64,000 nucleotides of DNA, from sequence record NZ_CP014527.1; one strand, 5' to 3'. This DNA comes from a plasmid. Below, piece by piece: positions 1 to 24,286 of the stretch (its first letter is position 1; the number at the start of each line of letters is the position of its first letter). A program made the position numbers and the translations under genes. The notes under the pieces were generated by a model. It worked only from the letters and a program-made list of their open reading frames with translations, had not been told where the DNA came from and ran no database searches.

Positions 1-23
1 AAATGTGTGTATATCTATTTGTT

Positions 24-647
24 ATGGATAGATATGTTTCCGTTGGCCGTGCGGCGGCCCTTCTTGGTGTCTCGGTCAGCACGCTCCGTCGCTGGGAGCG
101 GGAAGGCAAGCTTTTGCCGGAGCGGACGGCATCCGGCCACCGCCGTTATGCCCTGTCCCGGCTTCAATCCGGTCACGACGGCGAGGCAGCGGCGCAGAAG
201 CGTACCATTGCCTATGCGCGTGTTTCCAGTCATGACCAGAAAGCGGACCTTGAACGCCAGAAAAAGATACTGGAACTATACTGTGCCCGGCAAGGCTGGA
301 CCCATGAGGTTATAGCCGACCTTGGGTCCGGAATGAATTACCGCAAGAAAGGTCTCAAACGTCTTCTGGAAGATATCATGGCGGGCCGGGTCGGACGCCT
401 TGTCCTGACGCACAAGGACCGTCTTCTCCGCTTTGGTGCCGAGCTTGTGTTTGCGCTTTGTGAGGCCAGACAGGTGGAGGTTGTGATCCTCAACCAGGGT
501 GAGGACACCACCTTCGAGGAAGATCTGGCGAAAGATGTCCTTGAGATCATCACCGTGTTCAGCGCCCGTCTGTATGGGGCACGGTCCCGGAAGAACCAGA
601 GACTTCTGGAGGCTGTTGCAGAGGCGGTCAAGGATTCCCCGGCATGA
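24..647 (+). CDS. tnpA: IS607-family transposase TnpA (serine recombinase with N-terminal MerR-type HTH)
   Basis: N-terminal HTH 'VGRAAALLGVSVSTLRRWEREGKL'. Resolvase catalytic motif 'IAYARVSSHDQ' with active-site Ser. Likely start is the internal Met (MDRYVS) of ORF 3..647. Confidence 0.85.
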   Translation: MDRYVSVGRAAALLGVSVSTLRRWEREGKLLPERTASGHRRYALSRLQSGHDGEAAAQKRTIAYARVSSHDQKADLERQKKILELYCARQGWTHEVIADLGSGMNYRKKGLKRLLEDIMAGRVGRLVLTHKDRLLRFGAELVFALCEARQVEVVILNQGEDTTFEEDLAKDVLEIITVFSARLYGARSRKNQRLLEAVAEAVKDSPA

Positions 648-11297: not shown

Positions 11298-11386
11298 ATC
11301 AACCTGACCGGAGATTACCTGTGGCGCAGCAGCGCCAAGATCGGCGCAGGCAAATTCAGGCCACTACGACCGCTACAGCCGGCTTA
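11298..11386 (+). pseudogene. tnpA: Tn21-like tnpA 3'-terminal relic (last 29 codons)
   Basis: Translates to 'INLTGDYLWRSSAKIGAGKFRPLRPLQPA*', the C-terminal peptide of Tn21-subgroup TnpA (recalled from memory). Begins immediately outside IR-2. Stop codon TAG inside IR-3. Confidence 0.8.
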
Positions 11387-11420
11387 GCGTACGATTTTTT
11401 CCGTTTTCTGAGACGACCCC
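11383..11420 (-). repeat. Tn21-subgroup (Tn3-family) 38-bp terminal inverted repeat, IR-3 (IRtnp-type end)
   Basis: Reverse complement ggggtcgtctcagaaaacggaaaaaatcgtacgctaag. Preceded by the tnpA 3' relic exactly as at a Tn21 IRtnp end. Confidence 0.8.
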
Positions 11421-11547
11421 AAGTTGTCGCATTGTTCCGTTTTGTGGTTAAAAAACAATGCTTGGCGGGATAAACACACGAAACCCCGCTTGCAATTTAT
11501 CGGCGATGCCTCATAATGCTGCAGATTGCATTATTTCAGGGGCTAGA

Positions 11548-11742
11548 ATGACCGCCAAACACCGTATAACCATCAACATGACTGAGGCGGAATATACCGC
11601 CCTTGCGGCTCTGGCTGAACGGTTTCAAGTTTCAATGGCATGGCTTGGCCGCCGTGCTTTGGGTGAGATGGTAGAAAAATACAAACACGCAGGGCAACTC
11701 ACCATGCCCTTTGACGCAACACCGCCAAAGGAAAAATCATGA
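11548..11742 (+). CDS. Ribbon-helix-helix (CopG/Arc-like) DNA-binding protein, candidate controller of the downstream R-M operon
   Basis: 'MTAKHRITINMTEAEYTALAALAERFQVSMAWLGRRALGEMV' shows a beta-strand-helix-helix pattern. Stop codon overlaps the methyltransferase ATG (ATGA). Confidence 0.55.
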   Translation: MTAKHRITINMTEAEYTALAALAERFQVSMAWLGRRALGEMVEKYKHAGQLTMPFDATPPKEKS

Positions 11743-13382
11743 GAGCCAGCGCACTTGCCCCCGTTGTTCACCCACAATCAACCCGCCGGATAAATCTGCC
11801 GCTCAAAAAACCTACGCTTGAAACACCAACGCAGCTGGCCGACCGCATCGGCCAAAACTACACCAACCAAAAAAACGCCGAACACCGCAAAAGCCACGGG
11901 CTTTATTTAACCCCGCCGCCAGTGGCTGCCTTTATGGCAGATATGATCTGCCCCCGTGATACGCTACGCCTGCTTGATCCCGCCGCCGGTGCTGGCATTT
12001 TACTTTGCGCGGCCATCGAGCGGCTGGCCGCCTGCCCCAACCCGCCGCGTTTGGTTGAGATTGTCGCTTATGAAATTGATCCACCGTTAGCGGCCATGCT
12101 GGCCGAGGTTCTCGACCATCTAACCGCTTGGGCCGCTGGCAAGGGCATGACGATCAAAACCACAATCCGCTGCACTGATTTTATTTTGGCCGAGGCCGCC
12201 GCCCTGCATCATCGCCCCGCTAATCGCTTCGATGCCGTCATTGCTAACCCGCCTTATTTTAAGATCAACAAAGATGACCCCCGCGCCGTTGCGGCTTGTG
12301 ATGTTGTGCATGGTCAGCCCAATATCTATGGCCTGTTCATGGCTGTTGCCGCCGCGATGCTGAGTCAAGGCGGCGATCTGGTATTTATCACCCCGCGTAG
12401 CTTTGCATCAGGCCCTTATTTTAAGCGATTCCGCGAACGGTTTTTTTCAATGGTGCGACCGCTTAGAACTCATGTTTTTGCTTCCCGCCGCGATGCCTTT
12501 AGCCGCGATGCAGTGCTGCAAGAAAATGTTATCCTACATGCAATCCGCGCCGATGGATGGACAACCAAGCCCAACGGCCTGCCCTTCACAATTTCCAGCA
12601 GCACCGGCATGGGCGATCTTGACCAAGCCACCGAATACCCAGCCGCCTTAGCCGATGTAATCGACCCTAAAAATTTGGCTGGTGCTTTCCGTTTACCCTC
12701 AGGCCCCGAAGATGAAGACATTTTGCGCCGTGTGGACAGTTGGACAGGCTCACTTCATGCTTATGGGTTGGATATTTCCACCGGCCCCGTGGTGCCATTC
12801 CGCGCCACAGAACATCTAGCCGAGCAAGCTAATGGCGTAACCGTTCCCTTGTTGTGGTTAAACCATGTCAAGGCGATGGAGATTCAATGGCCGACCGCTA
12901 GCCGTAAACCGCAATACATTAAAAACAAAACCAATTCCCAACGCCTGCTTGTGCCAAACAGCACTTACATTCTGTTGCGCCGATTCAGTGCCAAGGAAGA
13001 GCACCGCCGCATGACCGCAGCCCCCTTGCTGGCCGGTCAGATTCCAGCCGCCATGATCGGTATTGAAAACCATCTAAACTATATTCACCGACCAGGCGGC
13101 AACATCAGCGATGATGAAGCCTTTGGCTTGGCCGCTTTGCTCAACAGCGCATTGATGGATGGGTATTTTCGTTGCACCAACGGCAATACCCAAGTCAGTG
13201 CCACCGAATTACGCGCCATGCCTTTGCCGCCCTTAGCCGCTATCGCCCAGCTTGGCCGCCGCGTCAGAAAAAAACCCGACAACATGGCTTTAATTGATGA
13301 TTTGGTTGAGGCGTTGACGCACAACCCCGATCAAATCAAGGTTAAAACGACCGAAAAACAAAAAGGAGAAGCCTTTGCCTGA
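11739..13382 (+). CDS. N6-adenine DNA methyltransferase, gamma-class (M.PstI/M.BsuBI / Eco57I-type family)
   Basis: AdoMet motif I 'LLDPAAGAGILLCAAIERL' precedes motif IV 'VIANPPYFKINKDD' (NPPY). 547 aa, close to M.PstI/M.BsuBI (~500 aa). Followed by a BsuBI/PstI-family REase gene. Confidence 0.85.
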   Translation: MRASALAPVVHPQSTRRINLPLKKPTLETPTQLADRIGQNYTNQKNAEHRKSHGLYLTPPPVAAFMADMICPRDTLRLLDPAAGAGILLCAAIERLAACPNPPRLVEIVAYEIDPPLAAMLAEVLDHLTAWAAGKGMTIKTTIRCTDFILAEAAALHHRPANRFDAVIANPPYFKINKDDPRAVAACDVVHGQPNIYGLFMAVAAAMLSQGGDLVFITPRSFASGPYFKRFRERFFSMVRPLRTHVFASRRDAFSRDAVLQENVILHAIRADGWTTKPNGLPFTISSSTGMGDLDQATEYPAALADVIDPKNLAGAFRLPSGPEDEDILRRVDSWTGSLHAYGLDISTGPVVPFRATEHLAEQANGVTVPLLWLNHVKAMEIQWPTASRKPQYIKNKTNSQRLLVPNSTYILLRRFSAKEEHRRMTAAPLLAGQIPAAMIGIENHLNYIHRPGGNISDDEAFGLAALLNSALMDGYFRCTNGNTQVSATELRAMPLPPLAAIAQLGRRVRKKPDNMALIDDLVEALTHNPDQIKVKTTEKQKGEAFA

Positions 13383-14316
13383 TATTCACCAAGCCCAAGA
13401 TATTCTAAAAAGTCTTGGCCTACCAGCCGCACAGCAGAATGAAATTTCCGCGCTAACCTTGCTGGCTCTTGTCGGGCTAGGCCCAACTGATCCTTGGTCA
13501 GCGGCTACCCGCAGCCGCCGCAGCGTATCAAAAGACATCATGGCTTTTATCGCCGAGCGTTTCGGTAAACACTATGCGCCCAACACCCGTGAAACCGTGC
13601 GGCGGCAAGTGTTGCATCAATTCGTGCAAGCCCGTATCGCCGATTATAACCCGTTCGAGCAGGACTTGCCGACCAATAGCCCCCGCGCTCATTACGCCAT
13701 CACCGATGATGCGTTGAGCGCAATTAAAACCTATGGCACAAAAGCATGGGCCGATGCCGTGGCACAATTCATTGCTACACACGGTTCACTTTCCAACACC
13801 TATGCAAAACACCGATCCACCGGAAAGCTGGTTCCAATCACTTTGCCGGACGGCAGCACCATTGAACTATCGCCCGGCAAGCATAATGACGTACAGAAAG
13901 CCATTATCGAGCAATTCGCGCCGCGTTTTGCGCCTGATTCCAAGCTGCTTTATATCGGCGACACCGCTAAAAAGAATGTCATAATGGATGCCAAAACCTT
14001 GGCCGATTTTGGCCTTGGTGCCGATGACCACGATAAATTGCCGGATGTGGTATTACTCGACCAAAAGAAGAATTGGTTGTTTCTAATTGAAGCGGTAACA
14101 TCACATGGCCCTATGTCACCCAAGCGCGTATTCGAGCTTGAGGAACGGTTAAAGGGCAGCCAAGCTGGGCCAGTTTATGTTAGCGCATTCCCAGATATGG
14201 CCGAGTTTCGTAAACACATGAAAGATATTGCTTGGGAAAGCGAAGTCTGGATTGCTGAAACACCGGATCACATGATCCATTTCAATGGCGATAGGTTTTT
14301 AGGGCCGAGAAAATAG
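13375..14316 (+). CDS. Type II restriction endonuclease, BsuBI/PstI family
   Basis: 313 aa, the size and position expected for R.PstI/R.BsuBI. TTG start 4 nt after a strong SD 'aaaaggagaa'. Overlaps the MTase stop. Family call rests on synteny plus overall similarity recalled from memory, not a computed alignment. Confidence 0.7.
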   Translation: MPDIHQAQDILKSLGLPAAQQNEISALTLLALVGLGPTDPWSAATRSRRSVSKDIMAFIAERFGKHYAPNTRETVRRQVLHQFVQARIADYNPFEQDLPTNSPRAHYAITDDALSAIKTYGTKAWADAVAQFIATHGSLSNTYAKHRSTGKLVPITLPDGSTIELSPGKHNDVQKAIIEQFAPRFAPDSKLLYIGDTAKKNVIMDAKTLADFGLGADDHDKLPDVVLLDQKKNWLFLIEAVTSHGPMSPKRVFELEERLKGSQAGPVYVSAFPDMAEFRKHMKDIAWESEVWIAETPDHMIHFNGDRFLGPRK

Positions 14317-14349
14317 GCACCGACTATCAAAACGCGGAGAGGCTATATC

Positions 14350-15051
14350 ATGGCAAGATGTACAGCACCAGTATATGGCCACCGCACATCGAGCGGGGCA
14401 GCTGCCTGCCCCGCATGTAATGGACGCTATAGAAGCTATACCTCACACTCATATTCACCGCCGCCGCCTTACTTCACCACCACAACAGTGAGCAATTGGG
14501 GTGGCCGAAGCAGCGGAAGTAGTTCTGGCAGCAGCGGAAAGGTTCGCTGGTCTCGGCCAGGTTCGTCCGTGATGTACACGCCTGCCCAGATACGGACGCT
14601 CACGCCTGTCCGTGAAAACATCGAAAACAAAACGTCCGTTCTCGATCTTCGGGACGTTTTTCTTTGCCATGCGTGGGACGACAGGAAAGGGGCTGCCAAG
14701 GAACTGCATGATCTGCTCCAGTCGCTCGGGGTATCGGTCTGGTTCAGCGAGAAGGATGTAGCCCTCGGCACTTCGTTGCTCCGCGAAATCGACAAAGGAT
14801 TGGTGAAGTCCCGAGTCGGGATCGTACTAGTGACCCCAGCACTGTTGCGTCGCATTCAAGGAGAGGGAATCGCCGACAAAGAGCTTTCGGCACTACTAGC
14901 GCGTGACCTGCTTGTTCCTGTTGTGCATGAAACCACGTATGACGCCCTCCGAGAAGTTAGCCCACTGCTCGGTTCGCGAAGCGGCCTGAGCACCGCAGAA
15001 GAGCCGATGGCAGACATTGCGGCCAAGCTCGCTGAACTAGTCGCCCCCTAG
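14350..15051 (+). CDS. TIR-domain protein (bacterial Toll/interleukin-1 receptor-like, putative NADase effector) with N-terminal Cys-x2-Cys and Ser/Gly-rich linker
   Basis: TIR core 'DVFLCHAWDDRKGAAKELHDLLQSLGVSVWFSEKDVALGTSLLREIDKGLVKSRVGIVLVTPALL' with the conserved catalytic Glu context (WFSE). SD 'GGAGAGG' 7 nt upstream. Starts 33 bp after the REase stop. Confidence 0.8.
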   Translation: MARCTAPVYGHRTSSGAAACPACNGRYRSYTSHSYSPPPPYFTTTTVSNWGGRSSGSSSGSSGKVRWSRPGSSVMYTPAQIRTLTPVRENIENKTSVLDLRDVFLCHAWDDRKGAAKELHDLLQSLGVSVWFSEKDVALGTSLLREIDKGLVKSRVGIVLVTPALLRRIQGEGIADKELSALLARDLLVPVVHETTYDALREVSPLLGSRSGLSTAEEPMADIAAKLAELVAP

Positions 15052-15129
15052 ATTGAATGCCCCAACAGTATAATTAAACAAGACCCCCACGAGGCCACGG
15101 ATGCAAAATTCCAAACTTAGGATTCACGC

Positions 15130-15339
15130 ATGATTGTCGTTATGGACAAAGAAGGCACACTTCATATTGAAGACGAAAATGGTAATGCTATGGACGGTTG
15201 CCGCATTAGTGCCACGAGATTCGATGAAACTTATATTGATGGCCTTTATGGCCGAAAATATTTTCCGGCCACCATGTGGGCGACCGTGGTTCGCAAAGGT
15301 GGTAAATATCGTGAGGTAAAAGTTACGCAAAAGAAATAG
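15130..15339 (+). CDS. Small hypothetical protein (69 aa) in a locally AT-rich segment
   Basis: AGGA 8 nt upstream of ATG. Followed by a 9-bp-stem hairpin cctaaaaac-ccac-gtttttagg (15349-15370). ~42% GC vs ~59% around it. No known domain. Confidence 0.4.
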   Translation: MIVVMDKEGTLHIEDENGNAMDGCRISATRFDETYIDGLYGRKYFPATMWATVVRKGGKYREVKVTQKK

Positions 15340-15390
15340 CTATGACGTCCTAAAAACCCACGTTTTTAGGATATTGGCCACCCTGCCCCG

Positions 15391-15424
15391 CTGTGAGCTT
15401 GATCGCTAAATGGCTTTGAATTTT
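15391..15424 (+). repeat. 33-bp inverted repeat (partner copies at 16301-16333 and 20345-20377 in opposite orientation)
   Basis: gatcgctaaatggctttgaattttgattgctat is the exact reverse complement of atagcaatcaaaattcaaagccatttagcgatc found at 16301 and 20345. Confidence 0.75.
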
Positions 15425-15429
15425 GATTG

Positions 15430-16011
15430 CTATCTGGCGTGCTCGGTGCGTGTGAGGGTGCGGTACACGGTCGGCCTGGAGACGGAGAACAGCTCGGCCA
15501 GATCGCTGATGCTGTAGTCACCGGTATCGTACATCCGCCGCAACTCGCATTGCTGCCGTTCGGAGAGCTTGGGCTTCTTGCCGCGTAGTTTGCCCTTGGC
15601 GCGGGCTACCGCCATGCCCTCGCGGGTTCGTAGCCGGATGATGTCCGACTCAAACTCCGCAAAGGTAGCGAGGATATTGAAGAACATCTTCCCCATGGGG
15701 TCGGTCGGGTCATAGATGGACGCGCCCAAGGCCAGTCGTACCTTGCGCTCCGTCAAGGTGTCGGCGATCTCCCGTGCATCGAGGACCGAGCGTGCGAGGC
15801 GGTCGAGCTTCGTGATGACCAGCGTGTCACCCGCCCTCACGGCCGCAAGCGCCTGGTCGAGACCGGGCCGTGTGCGTGTGCGCCCGGTCAGCCCCTGATC
15901 CGTATAGATGCGATCCGGAGCAACACCGAGTTCGACGAGGGCATGACGCTGCGCAGCAAGGTCTTGCTTGTCAGTAGAGCAGCGCGCGTAACCAATCGTA
16001 ATATTCTTCAT
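15430..16011 (-). CDS. Small serine recombinase (resolvase/DNA-invertase family, Tn3 TnpR/Hin-like)
   Basis: 193 aa. 'IGYARCSTDKQDLAAQ' catalytic Ser motif. C-terminal HTH 'YSISDLAELFSVSRPTVYRTL'. Confidence 0.85.
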   Translation of the reverse strand: MKNITIGYARCSTDKQDLAAQRHALVELGVAPDRIYTDQGLTGRTRTRPGLDQALAAVRAGDTLVITKLDRLARSVLDAREIADTLTERKVRLALGASIYDPTDPMGKMFFNILATFAEFESDIIRLRTREGMAVARAKGKLRGKKPKLSERQQCELRRMYDTGDYSISDLAELFSVSRPTVYRTLTRTEHAR

Positions 16012-16014
16012 GTC

Positions 16015-16100
16015 ATAAGATGTACGTTAGACGTACCGTTACTGCAATTTTTATCGTACCATTCAATTGATAAAGAAAACCTCCCGTTATTTACCGATAT
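16015..16100. promoter_or_regulatory. Putative recombinase binding/res-like region upstream of the resolvase gene
   Basis: Palindrome gtacgttagacgtac and additional 'cgtacc' half-site repeats within 90 bp of the recombinase start codon. Serine resolvases typically autoregulate from res. Confidence 0.3.
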
Positions 16101-16127
16101 GTGTACTGAGTGGGTTTATGATGATGA

Positions 16128-16345
16128 ACCGTCCGCACAACGATCCTCTTACGGACAATCTCACAGACTTCTCTGAAGAACAGCGCAGCCAGGCAATGCG
16201 CCGGTTTGCGCTTCTCCGGCCGCATCAATGAACTCGCCATGATCACTGAAGATGTCGTCGATGCCGCAGGACAGGCCCTCGTCATCGGGAACGCCAAATA
16301 GCAATCAAAATTCAAAGCCATTTAGCGATCAAGGTCACAGGTATC
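16128..16345 (+). repeat. ~215-bp repeated module, copy 1 (copy 2 at 20175-20390), ending in the 33-bp IR
   Basis: Near-identical to 20175-20390 from 'acaatctcacagacttctctgaag...' through '...gccatttagcgatcaaggtcaca'. In copy 1 the left 15-bp hairpin arm is absent and the 16-bp central spacer is inverted relative to copy 2. Confidence 0.75.
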
Positions 16346-16377
16346 TCGAAACCGGACCGGCTTGTAAATGGCCGTTT

Positions 16378-17421
16378 TTACGGCCGGCCCTGCTTCTCAT
16401 AGCGCCGCCGGCAGAAGGCGAGGAAGGCCGCATTCGGATCACGCAACGGCGGTCGGCCGGAGTCATCCCAGAACGACAGCCATTCGCTCTTCAGGTGATA
16501 CACATCCCAGCCAGGCGCGGCCAAGCGCGCATCGTGATACACATCGTCATCGAGCTGAGGAATGTCACGGGAGGACAGGGCTTCAATCGCCTTAATCGTC
16601 GCGCGGTTAGTGAACAGGATCATATCGCCGTCTTCCAGGCTCACTGTGTAATCCGGCAGATGGTTTGTCCGCGCCAAATCCTTCAGCAGATAGCGAAACT
16701 GCTTCAGCAAGCTCTTGGAGCCTGTTTTCTTGTGCAAAAGCTCGATGCTGATCGACCAGCTCGGCTGGCGACCGCAATGCTTGCGGGCGATCTCATAGAT
16801 GCGCCGTTCAAGCGGTTTGCGCAGCCGGAAATAATCCCGATGCAGCGTCAGGCATTCATTCTGATTGACCGCATTGAAGACCCAATCTGATAGGGTGATC
16901 TCACACCAGAGCAATCTACCATCGAGGCCGAATTTACGCGCGACCGAGGCGGAATCAATCAAGCCGAAGGCGCTGAATTGCTCTTCATCGCCTCGCTTGA
17001 TATTTGTGCGAATGCGCGTCCCATCGAGGCGATCAAGGGCTTCACACATCGCCTCATAATCCTTTCCGGACGTGCCGCGATTGGTGAACATCAGCAATTC
17101 GCGCGCGGTGATCCGCACCCGCTTGGAAATGGCTTCGCCCTTGTTCTTTTTCGCAATAAGCTGCGAAATGCAATAGATCAAAATATCCTTGTCATAGATG
17201 GTTGCCAGGCCTTTAACGCTTGGCACAATCTCGATCCAGTTGCCGTTATGCTCATAGCGCCTGACCGTGGTTTCAGGCTTCTTGGACAGAGAATAGAATG
17301 GGTGTTCCATCTGCGCGACCAAATCCTTCAGAACGGCGTCGGCAATATCGCAGATGAACAAGTCTCCTTGCGGATACCTGTCGGGAAGAAGGCTATCAAG
17401 ATTAGTGGTATCAGAGATCAT
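16378..17421 (-). CDS. repA: Plasmid replication initiator RepA (RPA-type 'replication initiator protein A' family)
   Basis: 347 aa. Start codon abuts an iteron array. Family assignment recalled from plasmids of alphaproteobacteria, not computed. Confidence 0.7.
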   Translation of the reverse strand: MISDTTNLDSLLPDRYPQGDLFICDIADAVLKDLVAQMEHPFYSLSKKPETTVRRYEHNGNWIEIVPSVKGLATIYDKDILIYCISQLIAKKNKGEAISKRVRITARELLMFTNRGTSGKDYEAMCEALDRLDGTRIRTNIKRGDEEQFSAFGLIDSASVARKFGLDGRLLWCEITLSDWVFNAVNQNECLTLHRDYFRLRKPLERRIYEIARKHCGRQPSWSISIELLHKKTGSKSLLKQFRYLLKDLARTNHLPDYTVSLEDGDMILFTNRATIKAIEALSSRDIPQLDDDVYHDARLAAPGWDVYHLKSEWLSFWDDSGRPPLRDPNAAFLAFCRRRYEKQGRP

Positions 17422-17624
17422 GCCCGCATATTCGTGGTATCAAAGACCGTTGTCAAGTGATTCGTGGTATCAAAGACCGTTGTCAAGTGATTCGTGGTAT
17501 CAGAGACCATGTCCGTATATTCGTGGTATCAGAGACTGACGTCACCGGCGGCCTGTAGATAACTAGGATTTCAAAGACCGTAGCCAGGATTTCAAAGACC
17601 GAGATTCGGGGTTTTAGAGACCGG
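17405..17624. promoter_or_regulatory. oriV-type iteron array upstream of repA
   Basis: Five ~30-bp-spaced repeats 'ttcgtggtatca(a/g)agac...' (17405-17547). Three copies of 'ggatttcaaagaccg'-like repeats (17566-17624). Followed by an AT-rich stretch with 3x 'ttaacac' (17676-17710). Confidence 0.8.
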
Positions 17625-18913
17625 CTTGCAAATAATCTTCAATGATTCCATAATGTTGAGCGGTGTTCAGAGGTGCTTAACACTATATTTAACACATAAT
17701 TTTAACACATGCGCGCGAGGACTGTAGATAACTTCGTTCAGAATGAACTCAAAAAGCCATTTCAGAATCCAATTCCAAAGCCTTGCCTATGCGAACCTCT
17801 GAAAGAAAGACTGAGTGCAGCGCTTTGAGCCGCACAAACGCCATGATGCTGAAACAAATACAACAAAATCAACCATCTGTGCCAACGGATAGACCGTAAT
17901 TTGCTTGGCAGGGGTACTTAGGGCAACGACAGGATGTAATTTTCAAGACATCTGCATGTGGATAGGAAGGACAGGTAATGGGGTTAAGGGCTTTTCACCC
18001 ACCACCGCTTCCCCCTATTCAACGGGCTTCCTATGCGATTTTAGAGCTATCCGGCTTTTTAGCTCCTGGACGAAGCGGATTAAGCTTTATGACATCATGC
18101 CGCATCGATCGCGGGCCACGCTGCAAAAGCCGTTGCCGTGGCTTTCTTGCCGCCGTCGCCAGCATTGCCGACCTAGCGCAGGGCGTTTGCAATCGGCGCG
18201 GTGAAGCGTTGCCAACCCAAATGGGCCAGTTTTGAGCCTGGTATCGCCACAAATTCCCGCACGGTGGCCTGATAGCGACTGGCCGCGACCACGCCCGTGT
18301 TTGTATGGGCATCTATTTCCGTTCTGACCGGCAGACCTTCGACCGCCGGAATCGTCAACCACCATGCCGGTCGCGCGGGATCGGCCATAAAATCATCCGT
18401 TGAGGGTGAACGACCGTTCAGCGTTAGGGCTGAGCCGAAAATCATCAGCCACTTCCGCGCTGTGGCATCACCGAGTTGCTTGATAATGCGTTCGACCGTC
18501 TGCCTTGCAGCAACGACAGCCAAGCCGAGCGACCGACCGATTGCGAGCTTTGCCCGTGGCAATCTCTTGCGCCTTATCCATGATGAAAAGCACAGGTGTT
18601 TCGTTGCTTTGCAGCCTGCTGCGTTCTGCCCTAGCCTTAAGCGCCGCGAAAATACGCGCCTTCAGCAAGGCTGAAACAACTGCACCGGCGCGACCATAGC
18701 GATGAGCTGGACTTGGGCCGCTAACTCCACCCACCACCCTATCAGTCGTCAAGCGTTGTCGGATCAGGCTTGCGTGATGCTTTGCTCACGCACCTGCAGG
18801 GCGGCCGAAAGGCCGAGGGTGATACGAGAATGCTTGACGTATCCCCACCAAGTTAAAATACCAAAAGCCCTCACGGGGGCATGGATGCAAAGAAATATTA
18901 TGGCCGAATATAG

Positions 18914-20009
18914 GTGTATTTCTGGCTGGGCCTTTGGCCGAATATGGGTGTAAATATGGGTGACGAGGATAGCATTATGCTGAAAACTGACACAATTCAG
19001 ATCACACCAGAGCTGCTGGCGTTGATTGCCGAGGTTGACGAATTCAAGGGCGCATGGCGCGCCCTTGGAACCCTTGCGCCTCAGCGCTTGAGGGATCTGC
19101 GCCACGTCGCCACCATCGAAAGCATCGGCTCTTCAACCCGTATCGAGGGCAGCAAGCTAACCGACCGCGAGGTTGAGCGCCTGATGGAAAACCTGGAAAT
19201 CAAAAAATTCTCGACCCGCGACGAGCAGGAAGTCGTCGGCTATGCCGAGGTGATGGAGACCATCTTCCAAGCCTGGAAAGAGATTCCCATCACGGAAAAC
19301 TATATCAAACAGCTTCACCGTGACCTTTTACGCCACAGCGACAAGGACGAGCGGCACCGTGGCGAATACAAGACCTTGCGCAACGACGTGGGAGCCTTTG
19401 ACGCAGACGGCAAGATGATCGGCATCGTGTTCGAGACGGCCACGCCGCATGACCGAGCTGGTGCAATGGTTGAATGACGCCCGCGAGCTGAAGCGGATTC
19501 ACCCGCTCTTGATCGTCGCCGTGTTCGTCGTCACCTTTCTGGAAATTCACCCCTTCCAAGACGGCAATGGCCGCTTGAGCCGCGCCCTCACCACCCTGCT
19601 CTTGTTGCAGGCCGGCTATGCCTACGTGCCGTATTCATCGCTTGAATCCGTGATCGAGAACAGCAAAGAAGGATACTATCTGGCCTTGCGGCAGACGCAA
19701 GGAACCATTCGCACCGAGGCCCCAAATTGGCAGCCCTGGCTTACTTTTTTCATGCGCGCCTTGCAGCAGCAAATGCGCCGCCTAGCCGAAAAAGTGGAGC
19801 GCGAAAAGCTGATGATGGCAGCACTGCCAGAGCTGGCCGCGCAGATCATCGACGAGGCGCGCAAGCGCGGCCGTATCACAATCGGCGACATGATCCGCGC
19901 CACCGGCGCGAGCCGCAACACACTGAAAGAGCATTTCAAACGATTGCTGGAACAAGGCCACCTTGTCCGCCACGGCACTGGCAAAGCAACCTGGTATGCC
20001 CTGCCCTGA
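18914..20009 (+). pseudogene. fic: fic (Fic/Doc-family AMPylator) disrupted by a frameshift near 19447
   Basis: ORF 18914..19477 has a Fic-type N-terminal region. ORF 19449..20009 in a different frame carries the Fic motif 'HPFQDGNGRLSR' and a C-terminal winged helix. The two overlap by 29 nt, implying a 1-nt indel. Confidence 0.75.
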
Positions 20010-20055
20010 TATAGAACGAGAGGAAGTAACGCAGATAGTGCAATTGCAGAAAAAA

Positions 20056-20175
20056 ATGCCAAAGGCCCTCAAGGGCGGCAAACGTGAAGCTAGGCTGAAG
20101 GTCGTTGACCTTTTTGCCGGAGCAGGAGGGCTGTCGTGTGGGCTTGAAATGGCTGGGTTCGAGACACAATTTGTC
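20056..20175 (+). pseudogene. DNA cytosine-5 methyltransferase (dcm-like) N-terminal fragment truncated by the 215-bp repeat module
   Basis: 'RLKVVDLFAGAGGLSCGLEMAGFE' is C5-MTase motif I (FxGxGG). The reading frame then runs into the hairpin of the repeat module at 20176. Confidence 0.6.
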
Positions 20176-20390
20176 TGTGAGATTGTCCGTAAGAGGATCG
20201 TTGTGCGGACAATCTCACAGACTTCTCTGAAGAACAGCGCAGCCAGGCAATGCGCCGGTTTGCGCTTCTCCGGCCGCATCAATGAACTCGCCATGATCAC
20301 TGAAGATGTCGTCGATGCCGCAGGACAGGCCCTCGTCATCGGGAACGCCAAATAGCAATCAAAATTCAAAGCCATTTAGCGATCAAGGTC
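20175..20390 (+). repeat. ~215-bp repeated module, copy 2, with intact 15/16/15 hairpin at its left end and the 33-bp IR at its right end
   Basis: gtctgtgagattgtccg-taagaggatcgttgtg-cggacaatctcacagac hairpin (20176-20225), then sequence identical to 16164-16345. Confidence 0.75.
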
Positions 20391-20492
20391 ACAACCGGCC
20401 ACGACGACACGCGGCTTCCGCGCTCTCAAAAACCACGCTTGAAACCGTGTCGGTTCTTGGTGATGTTTGCGATGAGTTTTGAGGGAGCTTCC

Positions 20493-20669
20493 ATGCTGAT
20501 CGGCTATGCCCGCGTTTCGACGCGAGACCAGACCACAGAGCTACAGACAGAGGCGTTATTGGCAGCCGGCAAGCTTCTGGAGACTGGCACGCCCGCCCGC
20601 ACCGTCGCCGAGAGTCTGGGCGTGTCACCCGCTACACTGTACCGCTGGCTGCCTGCCCAGACGGATTAG
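20493..20669 (+). pseudogene. tnpR: Internally deleted resolvase (tnpR) remnant
   Basis: 'MLIGYARVSTRDQTTELQTEA' (catalytic N-terminus) joined directly to an HTH 'TVAESLGVSPATLYRWL'. Only 59 aa versus ~185 for an intact resolvase. Ends at Tn3-family IR-4. Confidence 0.55.
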
Positions 20670-20702
20670 CGTGTCTTATTTTCCGTTTTCTGAGACGACC
20701 TC
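20665..20702 (-). repeat. Tn21-subgroup (Tn3-family) terminal inverted repeat, IR-4 (outer GAGG instead of GGGG)
   Basis: Reverse complement gaggtcgtctcagaaaacggaaaataagacacgctaat has ~33/38 identity to the Tn21 IR. Same orientation as IR-2/IR-3. Confidence 0.7.
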
Positions 20703-20706
20703 TTCA

Positions 20707-21054
20707 GGCCCGTGGCATGCAATTCCGTGCCTTGGTTGACCGCATTGGCGCCGGAAGTCCCGCAGGCAAGGCGGGTACGGTCAGGCGACGCAACCGCTTC
20801 ATCAGGTTGGCTTTGTTCTGACGTGCCTGTGCCAGATCGTAAGCCGCCTGCAAGCGCAGCCACAGGTCCGCCTTCACACCTATCACCGCCTCAAGCCGCA
20901 GTGCCATTTCGGGGGATATGGCGCTCTGTTGGTTAAGGACGCGGTACAGTTGTTGACGGCTTATGCCAAGCGCTTCTGCGGCTTGTGCCGTTGTTAGGTT
21001 CAACGCTTCAAGATCATCTTTGAGACCTTCAGCGGGGTGGGGTGGGTTGTGCAT
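20707..21054 (-). CDS. higA: HigA antitoxin (Xre-family HTH)
   Basis: 'AEGLKDDLEALNLTTAQAAEALGISRQQLYRVLNQQSAISPEMALRLEAVIGVKADLWLRLQAAYDL' matches HigA. Start taken at internal Met (MHNPP). C-terminus runs into IR-4. Confidence 0.8.
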
Positions 21055-21076
21055 AGGCACGCTCTTTCTCCCTTTC

Positions 21077-21355
21077 TCAGTGATATTGTTCCAAGTCCAG
21101 CACGCTGAATTTTCCGTTTTCGTGCGTGAACGTGATGCGCCAGGGGCCATTTACGCTCATAGCCCACGTTCCTTTGCGGGCACCTGATAACTCGTGCAGG
21201 CGAAAGGACGGGCGGTTTAGATCGTCGAGGCTGTCAGCTTCATCGAGTATTGAAAGAATGATTGCGATGCGCCGAGACAAGTCGGGGCGGACGCCCTTTG
21301 CATTCCCTGTCTCGTAAAACGCGCGCAATCCCTTGTGCTTGAAACTTGCTATCAT
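21077..21355 (-). CDS. higB: HigB toxin (RelE/ParE superfamily; 'plasmid maintenance system killer')
   Basis: 92 aa. 'MIASFKHKGLRAFYETGNAKGVRPDLSRRIAIILSILDEA' matches HigB. Toxin-first gene order typical of higBA. Confidence 0.8.
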   Translation of the reverse strand: MIASFKHKGLRAFYETGNAKGVRPDLSRRIAIILSILDEADSLDDLNRPSFRLHELSGARKGTWAMSVNGPWRITFTHENGKFSVLDLEQYH

Positions 21356-21447
21356 GGGTGGATGATGACATGTAATGTTACACTTGACAATGGGTCTATT
21401 TCCCTAAGAACAGTCCCCTGTTAAGCCAGTTCCTGTAAAAAATAGCG

Positions 21448-21891
21448 TTATCCCTCCTCAACCCTTAATCCATACTGTCTTATATATCTATAATATCCAG
21501 AGTAATCATTGGTCAGAGAGTGTATCTGGCCCACATGACAGTCTAACCTAGAGACGGTTTCATTTTTCGGTACGGGGACATATGCACTACAACCATCAAC
21601 ACTTACCAACAGAAAACATTTAAGCAGTGTTGCCCCATAAAAGAGATAAAAATAGTGAGATGATGCACTGGGATTTTGACCTGCGCCAGGCCTTAGCCAC
21701 GGGGCCTCAAAATTTTCATTAACATCGAAATATTCTCCCTTACCTGATTCAAAACGAAGGTGAACATTATTTTTGAAATAAGTCGTTTTCTGATTTCCGA
21801 GGCAAACCTTTCCCCAATCTTTACTCGGATCTGATTCCAAAATGGCTTTTATAAGATCATCTTCCCTAACATGTTGCGGTAGGTGTGTCAT
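21448..21891 (-). CDS. Hypothetical protein in a low-GC island
   Basis: 147-aa ORF. Locally ~40% GC vs ~59% window average. No recognisable motif. Confidence 0.4.
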   Translation of the reverse strand: MTHLPQHVREDDLIKAILESDPSKDWGKVCLGNQKTTYFKNNVHLRFESGKGEYFDVNENFEAPWLRPGAGQNPSASSHYFYLFYGATLLKCFLLVSVDGCSAYVPVPKNETVSRLDCHVGQIHSLTNDYSGYYRYIRQYGLRVEEG

Positions 21892-22387
21892 CTCTCTCCC
21901 CTATTCTCGGTGCGTGTAATAAAGAAGAACAGTGGCAGCACTCATCAAAGCGACAAGCTGTTCTCGCTGAACAAGCCTGTCCTTTTCCCCGCTCACGCTG
22001 TGTAAACGAAACATGAGCGTTCCGAGCGGATTTTCCCGCCCTTCACAGTAGCATTGACCGTCGAAATCCTTATGTAGGGTTTCTGCTCAAACACCTTCCC
22101 GTCATCTGAGTCACGCACCATCTTCCGGAGCCAGCGTTATGGGTCGCGCTCCTCCAGATGGTGCAAACAAAAAACTCAACCATCCGTCCCTTGTTCGATC
22201 CGCGCCGGAGGCGAGGGCGAACAGGCACCGAAGGTGCGTGGACGTCCCTCGTCCCGACGCCTTCAGAAGACCAGCGCGCGCAACGGAGTGCAACAGGCCG
22301 AAGGCGCATCGCAGCCACGCGCAGCACGTAGTGCGAGCATGGCGAGAAGCCACCTGTTGCACGGAGAGAGCACGTTGGTATTAGGCT

Positions 22388-22409
22388 CCCTCCCCGATGA
22401 CGGGGAGGG
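22388..22409 (+). terminator. GC-rich hairpin immediately upstream of the IS607 copy 2 left end
   Basis: ccctcccc-gatgac-ggggaggg followed by cgggcttt. No long T-tract, so terminator function is uncertain. Confidence 0.25.
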
Positions 22410-22463
22410 CGGGCTTTAACAGTTCTCTTGAAATCTATCTAAATGTGTGTATATCTATTTGTT

Positions 22464-23087
22464 ATGGATAGATATGTTTCCGTTGGCCGTGCGGCGGCCC
22501 TTCTTGGTGTCTCGGTCAGCACGCTCCGTCGCTGGGAGCGGGAAGGCAAGCTTTTGCCGGAGCGGACGGCATCCGGCCACCGCCGTTATGCCCTGTCCCG
22601 GCTTCAATCCGGTCACGACGGCGAGGCAGCGGCGCAGAAGCGTACCATTGCCTATGCGCGTGTTTCCAGTCATGACCAGAAAGCGGACCTTGAACGCCAG
22701 AAAAAGATACTGGAACTATACTGTGCCCGGCAAGGCTGGACCCATGAGGTTATAGCCGACCTTGGGTCCGGAATGAATTACCGCAAGAAAGGTCTCAAAC
22801 GTCTTCTGGAAGATATCATGGCGGGCCGGGTCGGACGCCTTGTCCTGACGCACAAGGACCGTCTTCTCCGCTTTGGTGCCGAGCTTGTGTTTGCGCTTTG
22901 TGAGGCCAGACAGGTGGAGGTTGTGATCCTCAACCAGGGTGAGGACACCACCTTCGAGGAAGATCTGGCGAAAGATGTCCTTGAGATCATCACCGTGTTC
23001 AGCGCCCGTCTGTATGGGGCACGGTCCCGGAAGAACCAGAGACTTCTGGAGGCTGTTGCAGAGGCGGTCAAGGATTCCCCGGCATGA
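22464..23087 (+). CDS. tnpA: IS607-family transposase TnpA (MerR-HTH serine recombinase)
   Basis: Identical to 24..647. Confidence 0.85.
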   Translation: MDRYVSVGRAAALLGVSVSTLRRWEREGKLLPERTASGHRRYALSRLQSGHDGEAAAQKRTIAYARVSSHDQKADLERQKKILELYCARQGWTHEVIADLGSGMNYRKKGLKRLLEDIMAGRVGRLVLTHKDRLLRFGAELVFALCEARQVEVVILNQGEDTTFEEDLAKDVLEIITVFSARLYGARSRKNQRLLEAVAEAVKDSPA

Positions 23088-24286
23088 TAACAGCCCATCG
23101 TATCGCGCTTGATCCCAACAATGTGCAGGCCACATATCTGGCCCGCGCTGCCGGGACAGCCCGCTTTGCCTATAACTGGGCCCTGGCGGAGTGGGGGCGG
23201 CAGTATGCGGCATGGAAAGAGGACAACACCCTGCCAAAGCCCTCGCAGTACGCCCTGCGCAAGCAGCTCAATGCCGTCAAGCGGGAGCAGTTTCCGTGGA
23301 TGCTGGAGGTTACGAAGAATGCCCCCCAGATGGCCATCATCCAGCTTGGAGAGGCCTTCAGGAACTTCTTCGCGGGCCGTGCCCGTTATCCGAAGTTCCG
23401 CAAGAAAGGTGTACACGACCGCTTCACCCTGACCAACGACCAGTTCACTATCGACGGTTCACACATCCGCATCCCCCATCTGGGCCGGGTGCGGATGCGC
23501 GAGGCGTTGCGCTTTACCGGCAAGATCATGTCAGCCACCGTGTCCCGTGTGGCCGACCGCTGGTTTGTCAGTCTTGCCGTGGAGACACCCGAGGAGCCAT
23601 GCCTGCCCCACGCTGAAAACCAAGGTGCGGTGGGTGTGGATCTCGGTGTCTCCGCACTGGCAACGCTCTCGACCGGGGACAGCCTTCCGGGACCCAAACC
23701 GCACAAGGCCGCGCTGAACCGTCTGCGCCGTTTGTCCCGGAGCCTGTCCCGGAAACAGAAAGGCTCCTCCAACCGCCGCAAGGCCCGGCAGAAGCTGGCC
23801 CGTCTTCACGCCCGGATCAGCAACATCCGCACCGATGCCCTGCACAAGCTCACCACAGCACTGGTCCGCAGATTTCACCTCATCGGCATCGAAGACCTGA
23901 ATGTACGCGGCATGATGCGCAACCGGCATCTGGCCCGCGCCATTGCCGACATGAGCTTTCATGCTTTCAGGCGGCAACTGGAATACAAGATGGCACGGCG
24001 CGGGGGACGGGTTGTGGTTGCCGACAGGTGGTTTGCCAGCAGCAAGACCTGTTCGTGCTGTGGGCACAAACTCGAAAGCCTGCCTTTGGCAACACGGGCA
24101 TGGGTGTGTCCCGTGTGCCGTACGCAGCATGATCGTGACGTGAATGCCGCGATCAACCTGAGACATCTGGCGGTGAGCTCCACCGTGTCAGCCTGTGGAG
24201 AGGAAAGCTCTGGCTTGGGTCGCAAGACCAAAGCGAAACTGGCCTCAGGGAAGCAGGAAGCAAGCAGCAGGTTTACTCATATATGA
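23084..24286 (+). CDS. tnpB: TnpB (IS605/IS607 OrfB)
   Basis: Identical to 644..1846. Confidence 0.85.
   Translation: MITAHRIALDPNNVQATYLARAAGTARFAYNWALAEWGRQYAAWKEDNTLPKPSQYALRKQLNAVKREQFPWMLEVTKNAPQMAIIQLGEAFRNFFAGRARYPKFRKKGVHDRFTLTNDQFTIDGSHIRIPHLGRVRMREALRFTGKIMSATVSRVADRWFVSLAVETPEEPCLPHAENQGAVGVDLGVSALATLSTGDSLPGPKPHKAALNRLRRLSRSLSRKQKGSSNRRKARQKLARLHARISNIRTDALHKLTTALVRRFHLIGIEDLNVRGMMRNRHLARAIADMSFHAFRRQLEYKMARRGGRVVVADRWFASSKTCSCCGHKLESLPLATRAWVCPVCRTQHDRDVNAAINLRHLAVSSTVSACGEESSGLGRKTKAKLASGKQEASSRFTHI

Follow-up and report, generated by a model that had tools for sequence, protein, structure and literature searches.

A small serine recombinase gene enclosed by inverted repeats raises the question of whether the DNA between the repeats is a switch flipped by its own enzyme, a unit that moves, or a partner in the excision of neighbouring DNA. 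Such a locus lies at positions 15391-16345 of a 64,000-nucleotide stretch of the plasmid record NZ_CP014527.1 (hereafter the window, coordinates being those of the whole stretch), and a third copy of the repeat lies about 4 kb away, beside the broken start of a cytosine methyltransferase gene (dcm). The original prediction for this locus left three options: a Hin-like invertible segment, a small mobile unit borne by the serine recombinase, or resolvase recombination sites (res) in direct repeat that would excise the DNA between them. The analysis described here indicates that window positions 15392-16339 are very probably what a deletion has left of a Tn552-like replicative transposon, a non-autonomous derivative of 948 bp.

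Anatomy of the 948-bp unit

The 33-mer GATCGCTAAATGGCTTTGAATTTTGATTGCTAT is present exactly at 15401-15433 (plus strand), 16298-16330 (minus strand) and 20352-20384 (minus strand), with 0.00 chance matches expected (100 shuffles); the three predicted copies are therefore real, at places 3-10 nt away from those first given (15391, 16301 and 20345). The similarity extends outward to TGTGA(G/C)C, which sets the outer ends at 15392, 16339 and 20393, and inward to about 49-58 nt at 91% identity, and each end consists of two direct repeats of about 23 bp, TGTGACCTTGATCGCTAAATGGC and TTTGAATTTTGATTGCTATTTGGC. From left to right, 15392-16339 comprises a left terminal inverted repeat (IR-L), the resolvase gene, an intergenic region, a fusion of transposase codons 1-36 to ATPase codons 252-277, and a right terminal inverted repeat (IR-R):

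15392-15440, plus strand: IR-L, 49 bp; the same end sequence bounds complete elements with target duplications
within 15392-15440: the two direct repeats of IR-L (about 23 bp each), TGTGAGCTTGATCGCTAAATGGC and TTTGAATTTTGATTGCTATCTGGC
15430-15432: stop codon of the resolvase gene, inside IR-L
15430-16011, minus strand: intact serine resolvase, 193 aa (Pfam Resolvase 3.6e-41, HTH_7 3e-11)
16012-16117, no strand: intergenic region between the divergent resolvase and transposase genes, probable res and promoters, by alignment with the related plasmids L011 and L007
16118-16226, plus strand: remnant of a DDE transposase gene (tniA/p480-like), codons 1-36, MMMNRPHNDPLTDNLTDFSEEQRSQAMRRFALLRPH
16220-16226, plus strand: internal deletion junction with the microhomology CCGCATC, common to transposase codon ~35 and ATPase codon ~252
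16221-16301, plus strand: remnant of an AAA+ ATPase gene (tniB/p271-like), last 26 codons and stop, RINELAMITEDVVDAAGQALVIGNAK*
16291-16339, minus strand: IR-R, copy 1, whose outer end ...GGTCACA abuts the GGT of the flank on the repA side

The 193-aa serine recombinase announced between the repeats is confirmed by Pfam Resolvase and HTH_7 matches on the open reading frame (ORF) at 15430-16011 (minus strand); its catalytic serine lies in GYARCSTDKQ, HTH_7 is C-terminal, and the protein is 100% identical to an H. jordaniae protein at NCBI. The resolvase and ATPase genes both close on a TAG located inside the repeat, which accounts for the reading frames seen closing at all three repeat copies. 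The 106-bp intergenic region aligns closely with L011 and L007 over long identical blocks (e.g. GTACGATAAAAATTGCAGTAACGGTACGTCTAACGTACAT) and contains GTACGT-TAG-ACGTAC together with further GTAC half-site-like motifs. It is probably the res site, since its position relative to the resolvase gene is that of res in Tn3/gamma-delta-type elements, and it is present in the window as a single copy.

The remainder of the unit is a scar of the two transposition genes. By tblastn, the transposase remnant is 57% identical to residues 1-35 of the L011 TniA and the ATPase remnant (coding 16221-16298, the last 25-26 residues) 68% identical to residues 252-276 of the L011 TniB. Moreover, window positions 16196-16225 encode MRRFALLRPH, the start of the full-length transposase P0148 of Haematospirillum sp. 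H4485 (MRRFALLRPHL). The junction is fixed by comparing the full-length gene in L047, CCGCATCTAATCGAAGG, with the ATPase 3' end in L002, CGCATCAACGAA. Specifically, L047 is 98% identical to the window over resolvase, res and transposase start and continues ...RPHLIEGAPL... from exactly the point at which the window switches to the end of the ATPase gene. A megablast search of PLSDB with the unit returned nothing useful, and the ATPase 3' end surfaced only in a more sensitive blastn of 16020-16345 against plasmids, in which 16217-16343 matches the 3' ends of "AAA family ATPase" genes and the sequence that follows them. The plasmids concerned belong to Dinoroseobacter, Pseudosulfitobacter and Methylobacterium, and their gene order is recombinase (minus strand), "Mu transposase C-terminal domain" protein (plus strand), ATPase (plus strand).

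Ends, mobility and relatives

The parent type of this unit is found in the metagenomic plasmids L007/L008 and L011-L013, which carry a 277-aa AAA_22 protein, a 493-aa protein with HTH_32, rve and Mu-transpos_C domains, and a divergent resolvase 93% identical to that of the window, all flanked by the same end sequences. In L011 the end sequence occurs at 181 and 4765, with the ATPase, transposase and resolvase genes and two cargo ORFs between the two ends and the 6-bp duplication AAGCTG outside them; in L007 the ends are 7.4 kb apart. The repeats are terminal inverted repeats of a Tn552-like transposon and not crossover sites of the recombinase.

The arrangement in the window does resemble a Hin-like segment that its own recombinase would flip at the 33-bp inverted repeats: near-perfect inverted repeats about 0.9 kb apart, a spacing similar to the size of the Hin segment, flank the gene, the protein is slightly closer to an invertase than to a resolvase in a comparison with PDB entries (Gin 105 bits, gamma-delta resolvase 84 bits), and JGI labels its relatives "DNA invertase Pin-like". 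Nevertheless, such a switch is very improbable here. The dyad symmetry of the repeats is weak (22 of 38 positions self-complementary, 58%), the hix consensus fits them with at best 12 mismatches in 24, worse than the best background place in the window (9), and each repeat is built from two direct 23-bp units in the manner of transposase-binding ends. Relatives have these repeats at spacings of 4.6-7.4 kb, with transposition genes and cargo inside and 6-7-bp target duplications at the outer borders. The palindromic GTACG motifs, of the kind expected for recombinase binding, lie upstream of the gene rather than in the repeats, and the window and contig L004 share one orientation. Six further contigs were grouped as having the same neighbours. 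The first option of the original prediction is thus not supported, and whether the protein would act as a resolvase or an invertase is decided by its context rather than by its sequence.

The reading as a transposon derivative is borne out by the behaviour of the unit in other genomes. A degenerate pattern of the ends, scanned over one genome per species, finds 26 stretches, including 10 in Haematospirillum sp. H4485 and 6 in Seohaeicola sp. 4SK31, mostly at contig ends. In H4485 the left-type ends run into the resolvase C-terminus and the right-type ends into the ATPase C-terminus, and left and right ends pair through identical 6-7-bp flanks (CCTGTT, GGTTGGC, CGCCTGT, CACATG). One of these contig ends, L031, is 100% identical to window positions 15933-16339, which places the same deletion at a different genomic site, and this deleted version pairs with the left end L019 through the 6-bp CACATG. 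In addition, the mini-element assembles from one terminal repeat to the other as 910-942-nt contigs in three unrelated sequencing runs (98.6-98.8% identity), and such stand-alone contigs are the behaviour of a discrete repeat. The 948-bp form is a non-autonomous mobile unit. Hence the second option of the original prediction survives as to a discrete moved unit and fails as to its engine, for the recombinase is a resolvase and movement would be due to a DDE transposase and an ATPase acting in trans. The full-length transposase P0148 is present among the H4485 proteins, and an exact look-up did not locate it on the H4485 contigs.

At least nine H4485 contig ends (L015-L031) stop inside the element, which has evidently multiplied in this strain and fragments its assembly, and two end variants coexist there, TGTGAGC..TACATGG and TGTGACC..TAAATGG. 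In strain H1815 the same mini-element lies between other flanks and its left end is without one 23-bp repeat: at L023 1060-1090 the left inverted repeat has lost 24 bp, corresponding to one 23-bp repeat (TAGCAATCAAGGTCACA), and this copy is probably immobile.

As to the family, the L011 transposase matches a locus of Staphylococcus plasmids with 42-44% identity across 97% of its length. In S. aureus NZ_CP062337 this locus has bin on one side and an AAA ATPase gene on the other, with blaI-blaR1-blaZ close by, a position that identifies it as p480 of Tn552, while the identity to TniA of the Tn402/Tn5053 type is 27%. The Tn552 ends in an S. aureus bla plasmid (L042) begin with TGTCAC and contain two motifs 23 bp apart, and the terminus TGTSAC is common to Tn552 and to the element. 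In the relatives the AAA_22 gene comes straight after the transposase gene, and no further transposition gene, of TniQ type or other, lies between the ends of L011 or L007; NCBIfam holds no model specific for the transposase or the ATPase of the element. For the roseobacter elements L002 and L003, searches by inverted repeats and by mismatch-tolerant matching yielded no clear left end, and neither is used in the arguments on boundaries and duplications. The cargo of the full-length relatives varies: in L007 (3156-10618) it includes a PemK toxin-antitoxin pair and CBS, P-II and DUF1538 genes, and in L011 (3472-4681) two ORFs without assigned function. The Tn552 family is already known, and the alphaproteobacterial element with its resolvase-carrying non-autonomous derivative is an undescribed member of it; a literature search, not exhaustive, found no paper on Tn552-like elements in Alphaproteobacteria or on mobile elements of Haematospirillum.

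The second copy and the inverted segment

To the right of the mini-element, a segment of about 4 kb with its own replication gene leads to a second, partial copy, which is joined on its left to the dcm start and on its right to the upstream region of another plasmid resolvase gene:

16340-20172, no strand: segment between the right-end copies (repA, iterons, fic, dcm start), inverted relative to the resolvase in Haematospirillum sp. strain 15-248
16378-17421, minus strand: repA (RPA family)
20056-20185, plus strand: N-terminal 40-43 codons of a C5 cytosine methyltransferase gene (dcm) with motif I DLFAGAGG, PF00145 positions 1-34
20173-20205, minus strand: inverted duplicate of transposase-gene nt 19-51 (reverse complement of 16136-16168), forming the left arm and loop of a hairpin
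20206-20393, plus strand: second, left-truncated right part, with the transposase gene from nt 35 on, the deletion junction, the ATPase remnant and IR-R (20345-20393)
20394-20493, plus strand: upstream (res) region of another plasmid resolvase gene; in CP014526 and 15-248 it runs on directly from the reverse complement of 16340-16377
20494-20669, plus strand: resident plasmid resolvase, internally deleted, 76 aa (Pfam Resolvase N-terminus and HTH_7)

Positions 16131-16339 and 20185-20393 form a direct repeat, within which 16152-16339 and 20206-20393 are identical (each 100% identical to L031), and the second copy has a right end only. The direct repeat would suit an excision system in which the repeats at 16298 and 20352 serve as res-like sites and the resolvase releases a repA-fic circle: direct repeats of about 190-209 bp flank a 4-kb segment with its own repA and iterons, and the same segment occurs in another arrangement on a 9-kb contig of 15-248. 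Still, this third option of the original prediction is hardly credible. The repeated DNA is a transposase/ATPase remnant with a transposon end, that is, right-end fragments and not the conserved region next to the resolvase gene, the window holds one candidate res copy, in the 106-bp region, and deletion from repeat to repeat could proceed by plain homologous recombination without a resolvase.

What demands an explanation is the hairpin at the left edge of the second copy (20173-20189 and 20206-20222), which as DNA folds at -19.6 kcal/mol (z = -6.7). Its 16-nt loop is as first described, and its arms are 17 bp long, not 15. Positions 16131-16168 are the exact reverse complement of 20173-20210 (38 nt). 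The predicted relation, a loop inverted in copy 1 with one arm missing there, holds in the sequence, yet its direction is the opposite of what was supposed: in copy 1, 16131-16168 encodes the conserved transposase peptide ..RPHNDPLTDNLTD..(NDPLTDNLTD) in the same orientation as in L002, L011, L023 and L047, so that copy 1 is native, lacks nothing, and copy 2 is derived. The native transposase gene contains GTCCG...CGGAC, and a strand switch at this pair gives exactly the structure of copy 2, in which a 33-nt inverted duplicate is joined to the forward copy (nt 35 on) at the 5-nt microhomology CGGAC.

The other side of the inverted duplicate meets dcm. In the ORF that begins at 20056, only positions 1-34 of the PF00145 DNA_methylase profile are represented (25.1 bits against a cut-off of 22), in agreement with the prediction that dcm is cut just after motif I, and no other part of the gene is present anywhere in the window. 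The metagenome contig L044 carries the same dcm at 97.8% identity with about 105 intact codons (..FACEIEPVYANTYKHN..GGPP), running on through ..FETQFACEIEPVYANTYKHN..LLAGGPP to the point where the left end of the element interrupts it, and the genes of a 2.1-kb ENA/JGI contig stand in the same order. Native dcm of L044 contains GCCTGTGAGATTG, which is 12/13 identical to the inverted transposase-gene sequence GTCTGTGAGATTG, and window positions 20173-20185 are 12/13 identical to both. In an ancestor like L044 the two stretches would lie about 1 kb apart in inverted orientation. On these alignments the junction between the dcm and transposase fragments (dcm' and transposase') reads as a microhomology junction. 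The VCEI codons (20173-20184) were also considered as a chance resemblance to dcm, a view rejected since native dcm in L044 reads ACEI there; the 8 nt left of IR-L (15384-15391), considered as a remnant of an L044-type insertion in dcm, were judged a chance extension of the alignment. The hairpin is a scar of rearrangement and does not bear the signature of a serine-recombinase crossover at the repeats. The inverted spacer, once presented as direct evidence of site-specific inversion, comes down to native coding sequence in copy 1 and, in copy 2, an inverted duplicate joined through microhomologies of 5 and about 12 nt.

The right-hand junctions are clarified by comparison with other plasmids. 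Both the H. jordaniae plasmid CP014526 and Haematospirillum sp. 15-248 have the DNA from 20394 onward directly next to 16340-16377 in reverse complement, and these contiguous flanks sharing ACC/GGT mark an empty site, about 100 bp upstream of a plasmid resolvase gene. In the window that resident gene has lost about 369 bp relative to CP014526, its N-terminal ~28 residues being fused to the helix-turn-helix part. In 15-248 the left end of the element lies 10 bp further into the res region, and in H1815 the right end occupies this +10 position and the other end lies 25 nt before a third resolvase gene. In L047 the left end is about 90 bp before a similar resolvase gene, and in L002 the right end is 19 bp before a recombinase-like reading frame. 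Five junctions are thus located within or beside the DNA upstream of a resolvase gene (window 20393/20394, L005, both sides of L023, L047 and L002), those outside the window being either within about 25 bp of the same type of region or next to other resolvase genes. The res region looks like a recurrent landing zone, in the way known for Tn552 and Tn5053, with res targeting a preference at most.

A real inversion nonetheless separates the window strain from 15-248, and it is of another kind than the one proposed. Strain 15-248 (L005/L006) has the order fic, dcm', inverted transposase start, res, resolvase (on the same strand as fic) and IR, while in the window the resolvase part is 4 kb away across repA and in the opposite relative orientation. 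Inversion of 16169-20172 in silico recreates the 15-248 junction and, at the exact position of the empty site, brings two right halves together head to head. Its breakpoints fall in transposase-gene and dcm sequence, outside the 33-bp repeats and both res regions, and the junctions differ in detail, TTTGTCTGTGAGATTG in the window versus TTTGCCTGTG-GATTG in 15-248.

Two histories can be proposed for this arrangement, both of which use only transposition, microhomology-mediated switching and homologous recombination and neither of which would impose a unique order of events. The first, possible but doubtful, begins with a palindromic right-right derivative inserted or formed in the res region, whose right halves stand head to head at GTCCG/CGGAC; recombination between the 38-bp repeats then flips the 4-kb segment repA-fic-dcm' and leaves two direct copies. 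Its strength is that DNA content is matched with two events only and that the in silico inversion yields, together with the 15-248 junction, a perfect palindrome in the empty site of CP014526 and 15-248. Set against this are the 3 bp, not 6-7, duplicated at the site, the hypothetical origin of the palindromic element, the length of 38 bp, short for RecA recombination, and the difference in junction detail between the strains. The second history, plausible if short of an even chance, starts from an ordinary copy in the res region and an L044-like copy in dcm; an inversion or a template switch at the 12/13-nt microhomology of dcm and the transposase gene, along with recombination between the copies, leaves a truncated copy beside dcm'; a later break in the truncated copy would be repaired from an intact right end through the 49-bp inverted repeat and CGGAC. 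Here L044 and the 2.1-kb contig do show dcm cut by IR-L at GGPP/CQ, with the microhomology partners inverted and about 1 kb apart, 15-248 has the predicted truncated copy followed by DNA of the res region, and in that strain IR-L matches IR-R without a mismatch over 49 bp. Conversely, more steps are needed, no intermediate with all the predicted junctions was found, and the 3-bp discrepancy of the target site stays. Simpler courses were also considered and rejected: a single simple insertion, a classical cointegrate, inside-end transposition or a replicative intramolecular inversion or deletion would each produce part of the junctions but not the full set, and in particular none of them accounts for two right ends that face the halves of one site and share only 3 bp.

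Known systems, mechanism and surroundings

The closest known system is Tn552, which has two transposition genes, the resolvase gene bin, inverted repeats of about 120 bp and 6-bp duplications, inserts preferentially at res sites, is commonly found in truncated forms without transposition genes and, when inserted beside a plasmid res, creates segments invertible by Bin (PMC3276174); like Tn7 and Tn5053, it carries arrays of transposase-binding repeats at its ends (PMC8649781). The element and its relatives share with Tn552 a DDE transposase of rve and Mu-C type (42-44% identical to p480), a p271-like AAA+ ATPase, a serine resolvase, the absence of a TniQ-like fourth gene in the relatives examined, target duplications (6-7 bp in the relatives), ends beginning TGT(C/G)AC with two motifs 23 bp apart, what looks like a preference for res regions of plasmid resolvases, and truncated copies that keep the resolvase without the transposition genes. 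They differ from it in the alphaproteobacterial host and in the absence of bla genes. Moreover, the deltaTn552 of the literature is a product of resolvase-mediated deletion, whereas the 948-bp derivative keeps both ends and transposes.

Several observations weigh against the assignment to a Tn552-like derivative and its movement by transposition. The copy in the window is without a target duplication (left flank CCCCGC, right flank GGTATC, and ACCGGC at the second copy), which indicates later recombination; CCCCGC has no partner, neither copy has a canonical duplication, and the right-end junctions share 3 bp (ACC/GGT) of the empty site, not 6-7. The inverted repeats measure 49 bp and not about 120 bp, the resolvase gene diverges from the transposase gene, whereas bin lies upstream of p480 and co-directional with it, and the resolvase scores slightly better against Gin. 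The lack of any full-length transposase or ATPase gene in the 64-kb window (tblastn) weakens the case for present mobility in this strain, and the outer flanks of the H4485 insertions examined contain no resolvase gene.

Other systems are more distant. Tn5053 and Tn402 are built on a related transposase/ATPase pair with a serine resolvase, follow a replicative logic and prefer res regions as targets, but their TniA is only 27% identical, tniQ is absent here, the end sequences are others, and the duplications are 6-7 bp here as opposed to 5 bp in Tn5053/Tn402. The locus resembles the Hin, Gin, Cin and Pin segments in having inverted repeats, about 1 kb apart, on either side of a small serine recombinase gene, and its protein is about as close to Gin as to resolvases; the repeats, however, are neither dyad-symmetric nor hix-like, and in relatives they form the ends of transposons flanked by target duplications. 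The Bin-invertible segments of staphylococcal penicillinase plasmids (resL/resR) likewise have a transposon resolvase and res in inverted orientation to a plasmid res, with plasmid DNA between them and inversion from strain to strain; here, however, the two resolvases are 38.7% identical, the plasmid one is internally deleted, and the breakpoints lie in the transposase gene and dcm. Cross-reaction of the element and resident resolvases was considered as well and judged unlikely from this identity and their dissimilar upstream motifs. Finally, IS101 of gamma-delta and the Tn3-derived inverted-repeat miniature elements (TIMEs) are likewise elements with internal deletions that have both ends left and are moved in trans; the mini-element differs from them in retaining a complete resolvase gene and the probable res.

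The parent element has 49-bp inverted repeats, each with two repeats of about 23 bp of transposase-binding type, a divergent resolvase with its probable res, a DDE transposase and an AAA+ ATPase. In the window a deletion at the 7-bp microhomology has fused transposase codon 36 to ATPase codon ~252, leaving both ends, the probable res and the resolvase. By analogy with Tn552, Mu and Tn7-type elements, a mechanism can be proposed. The transposase is expected to bind the two repeats in each end, the ATPase to assist target capture, and transposition to be replicative, with cointegrates resolved by the resolvase at the res in the 106-bp region. The mini-element would then have moved only with transposase and ATPase from a full-length copy, generating 6-7-bp duplications, and on a plasmid its resolvase could serve multimer resolution. 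The hairpin of the second copy, for its part, bears the signature of template switching or microhomology-mediated repair, with recombination between element copies at the same time or later.

It is also conceivable, if unlikely, that the mini-transposon acts as a cassette of res plus resolvase that lands in the res region of a plasmid resolvase and takes over multimer resolution. The resident resolvase gene beside the element is internally deleted, the transposon resolvase may have replaced its function, and a cassette would explain the 98-100% conservation of the 948-bp form in several Haematospirillum strains and metagenomes.

The reading as a Hin-type switch is thus replaced by a documented one, in which the locus is ordinary mobile-element wreckage, left by a Tn552-family element of Alphaproteobacteria with a resolvase-carrying derivative that still transposes. 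Nothing here alters what is known of the working of such elements. Haematospirillum is an emerging human pathogen in which the element is multi-copy, breaks assemblies and reshuffles plasmid regions for replication and defence, so knowledge of it is useful for annotation and for reading structural differences between strains. The locus is, moreover, a clean natural example of rearrangement at inverted microhomologies around a transposon remnant.

The window is DNA of Haematospirillum jordaniae: besides the resolvase match, a contig of GCA_012102795.1 shares the layout of window positions 13001-23000 at 99.8-99.9% identity. Within the segment between the right-end copies, iterons (17401-17601) lie upstream of repA and comprise five repeats of about 30 bp (ATTCGTGGTATCAAAGACC...) and two of 21 bp, so that repA and iterons form a minimal replicon bracketed by the two right-end copies. 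The fic gene (18914-20009) is split by a frameshift into overlapping ORFs of 187 and 186 aa and is a single 349-aa ORF in 15-248. A 41-nt stretch at 15067-15107, ending ...GGATGCAAA, is 71% identical to 18851-18891; the two precede the ORF at 15130-15339 and fic, respectively, and may be a shared promoter or leader. The res region of the resident resolvase contains the inverted repeat GGTTTCGAG ... CTTGAAACC (window 20394-20450; L001 4340-4420; L005 8621-8650), and in 15-248 the sequence appears recombined exactly at TCGAAACC/TTGAAACC, which may be the crossover point of that resolvase.

Outside this segment, a defence cluster lies directly left of the element (11739-15051), with an N6_Mtase/Eco57I-type methylase of 547 aa, a BsuBI/PstI-type endonuclease of 313 aa and a TIR-domain protein of 233 aa. 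In an IS607-family element (22443-24286), the gene of a 214-aa MerR-type serine recombinase (TnpA) overlaps that of a 400-aa TnpB (OrfB/Cas12f-like), and a fragment of about 135 bp (11299-11434) is 89-95% identical to Tn3-family transposase genes widespread on enterobacterial and Aeromonas plasmids.

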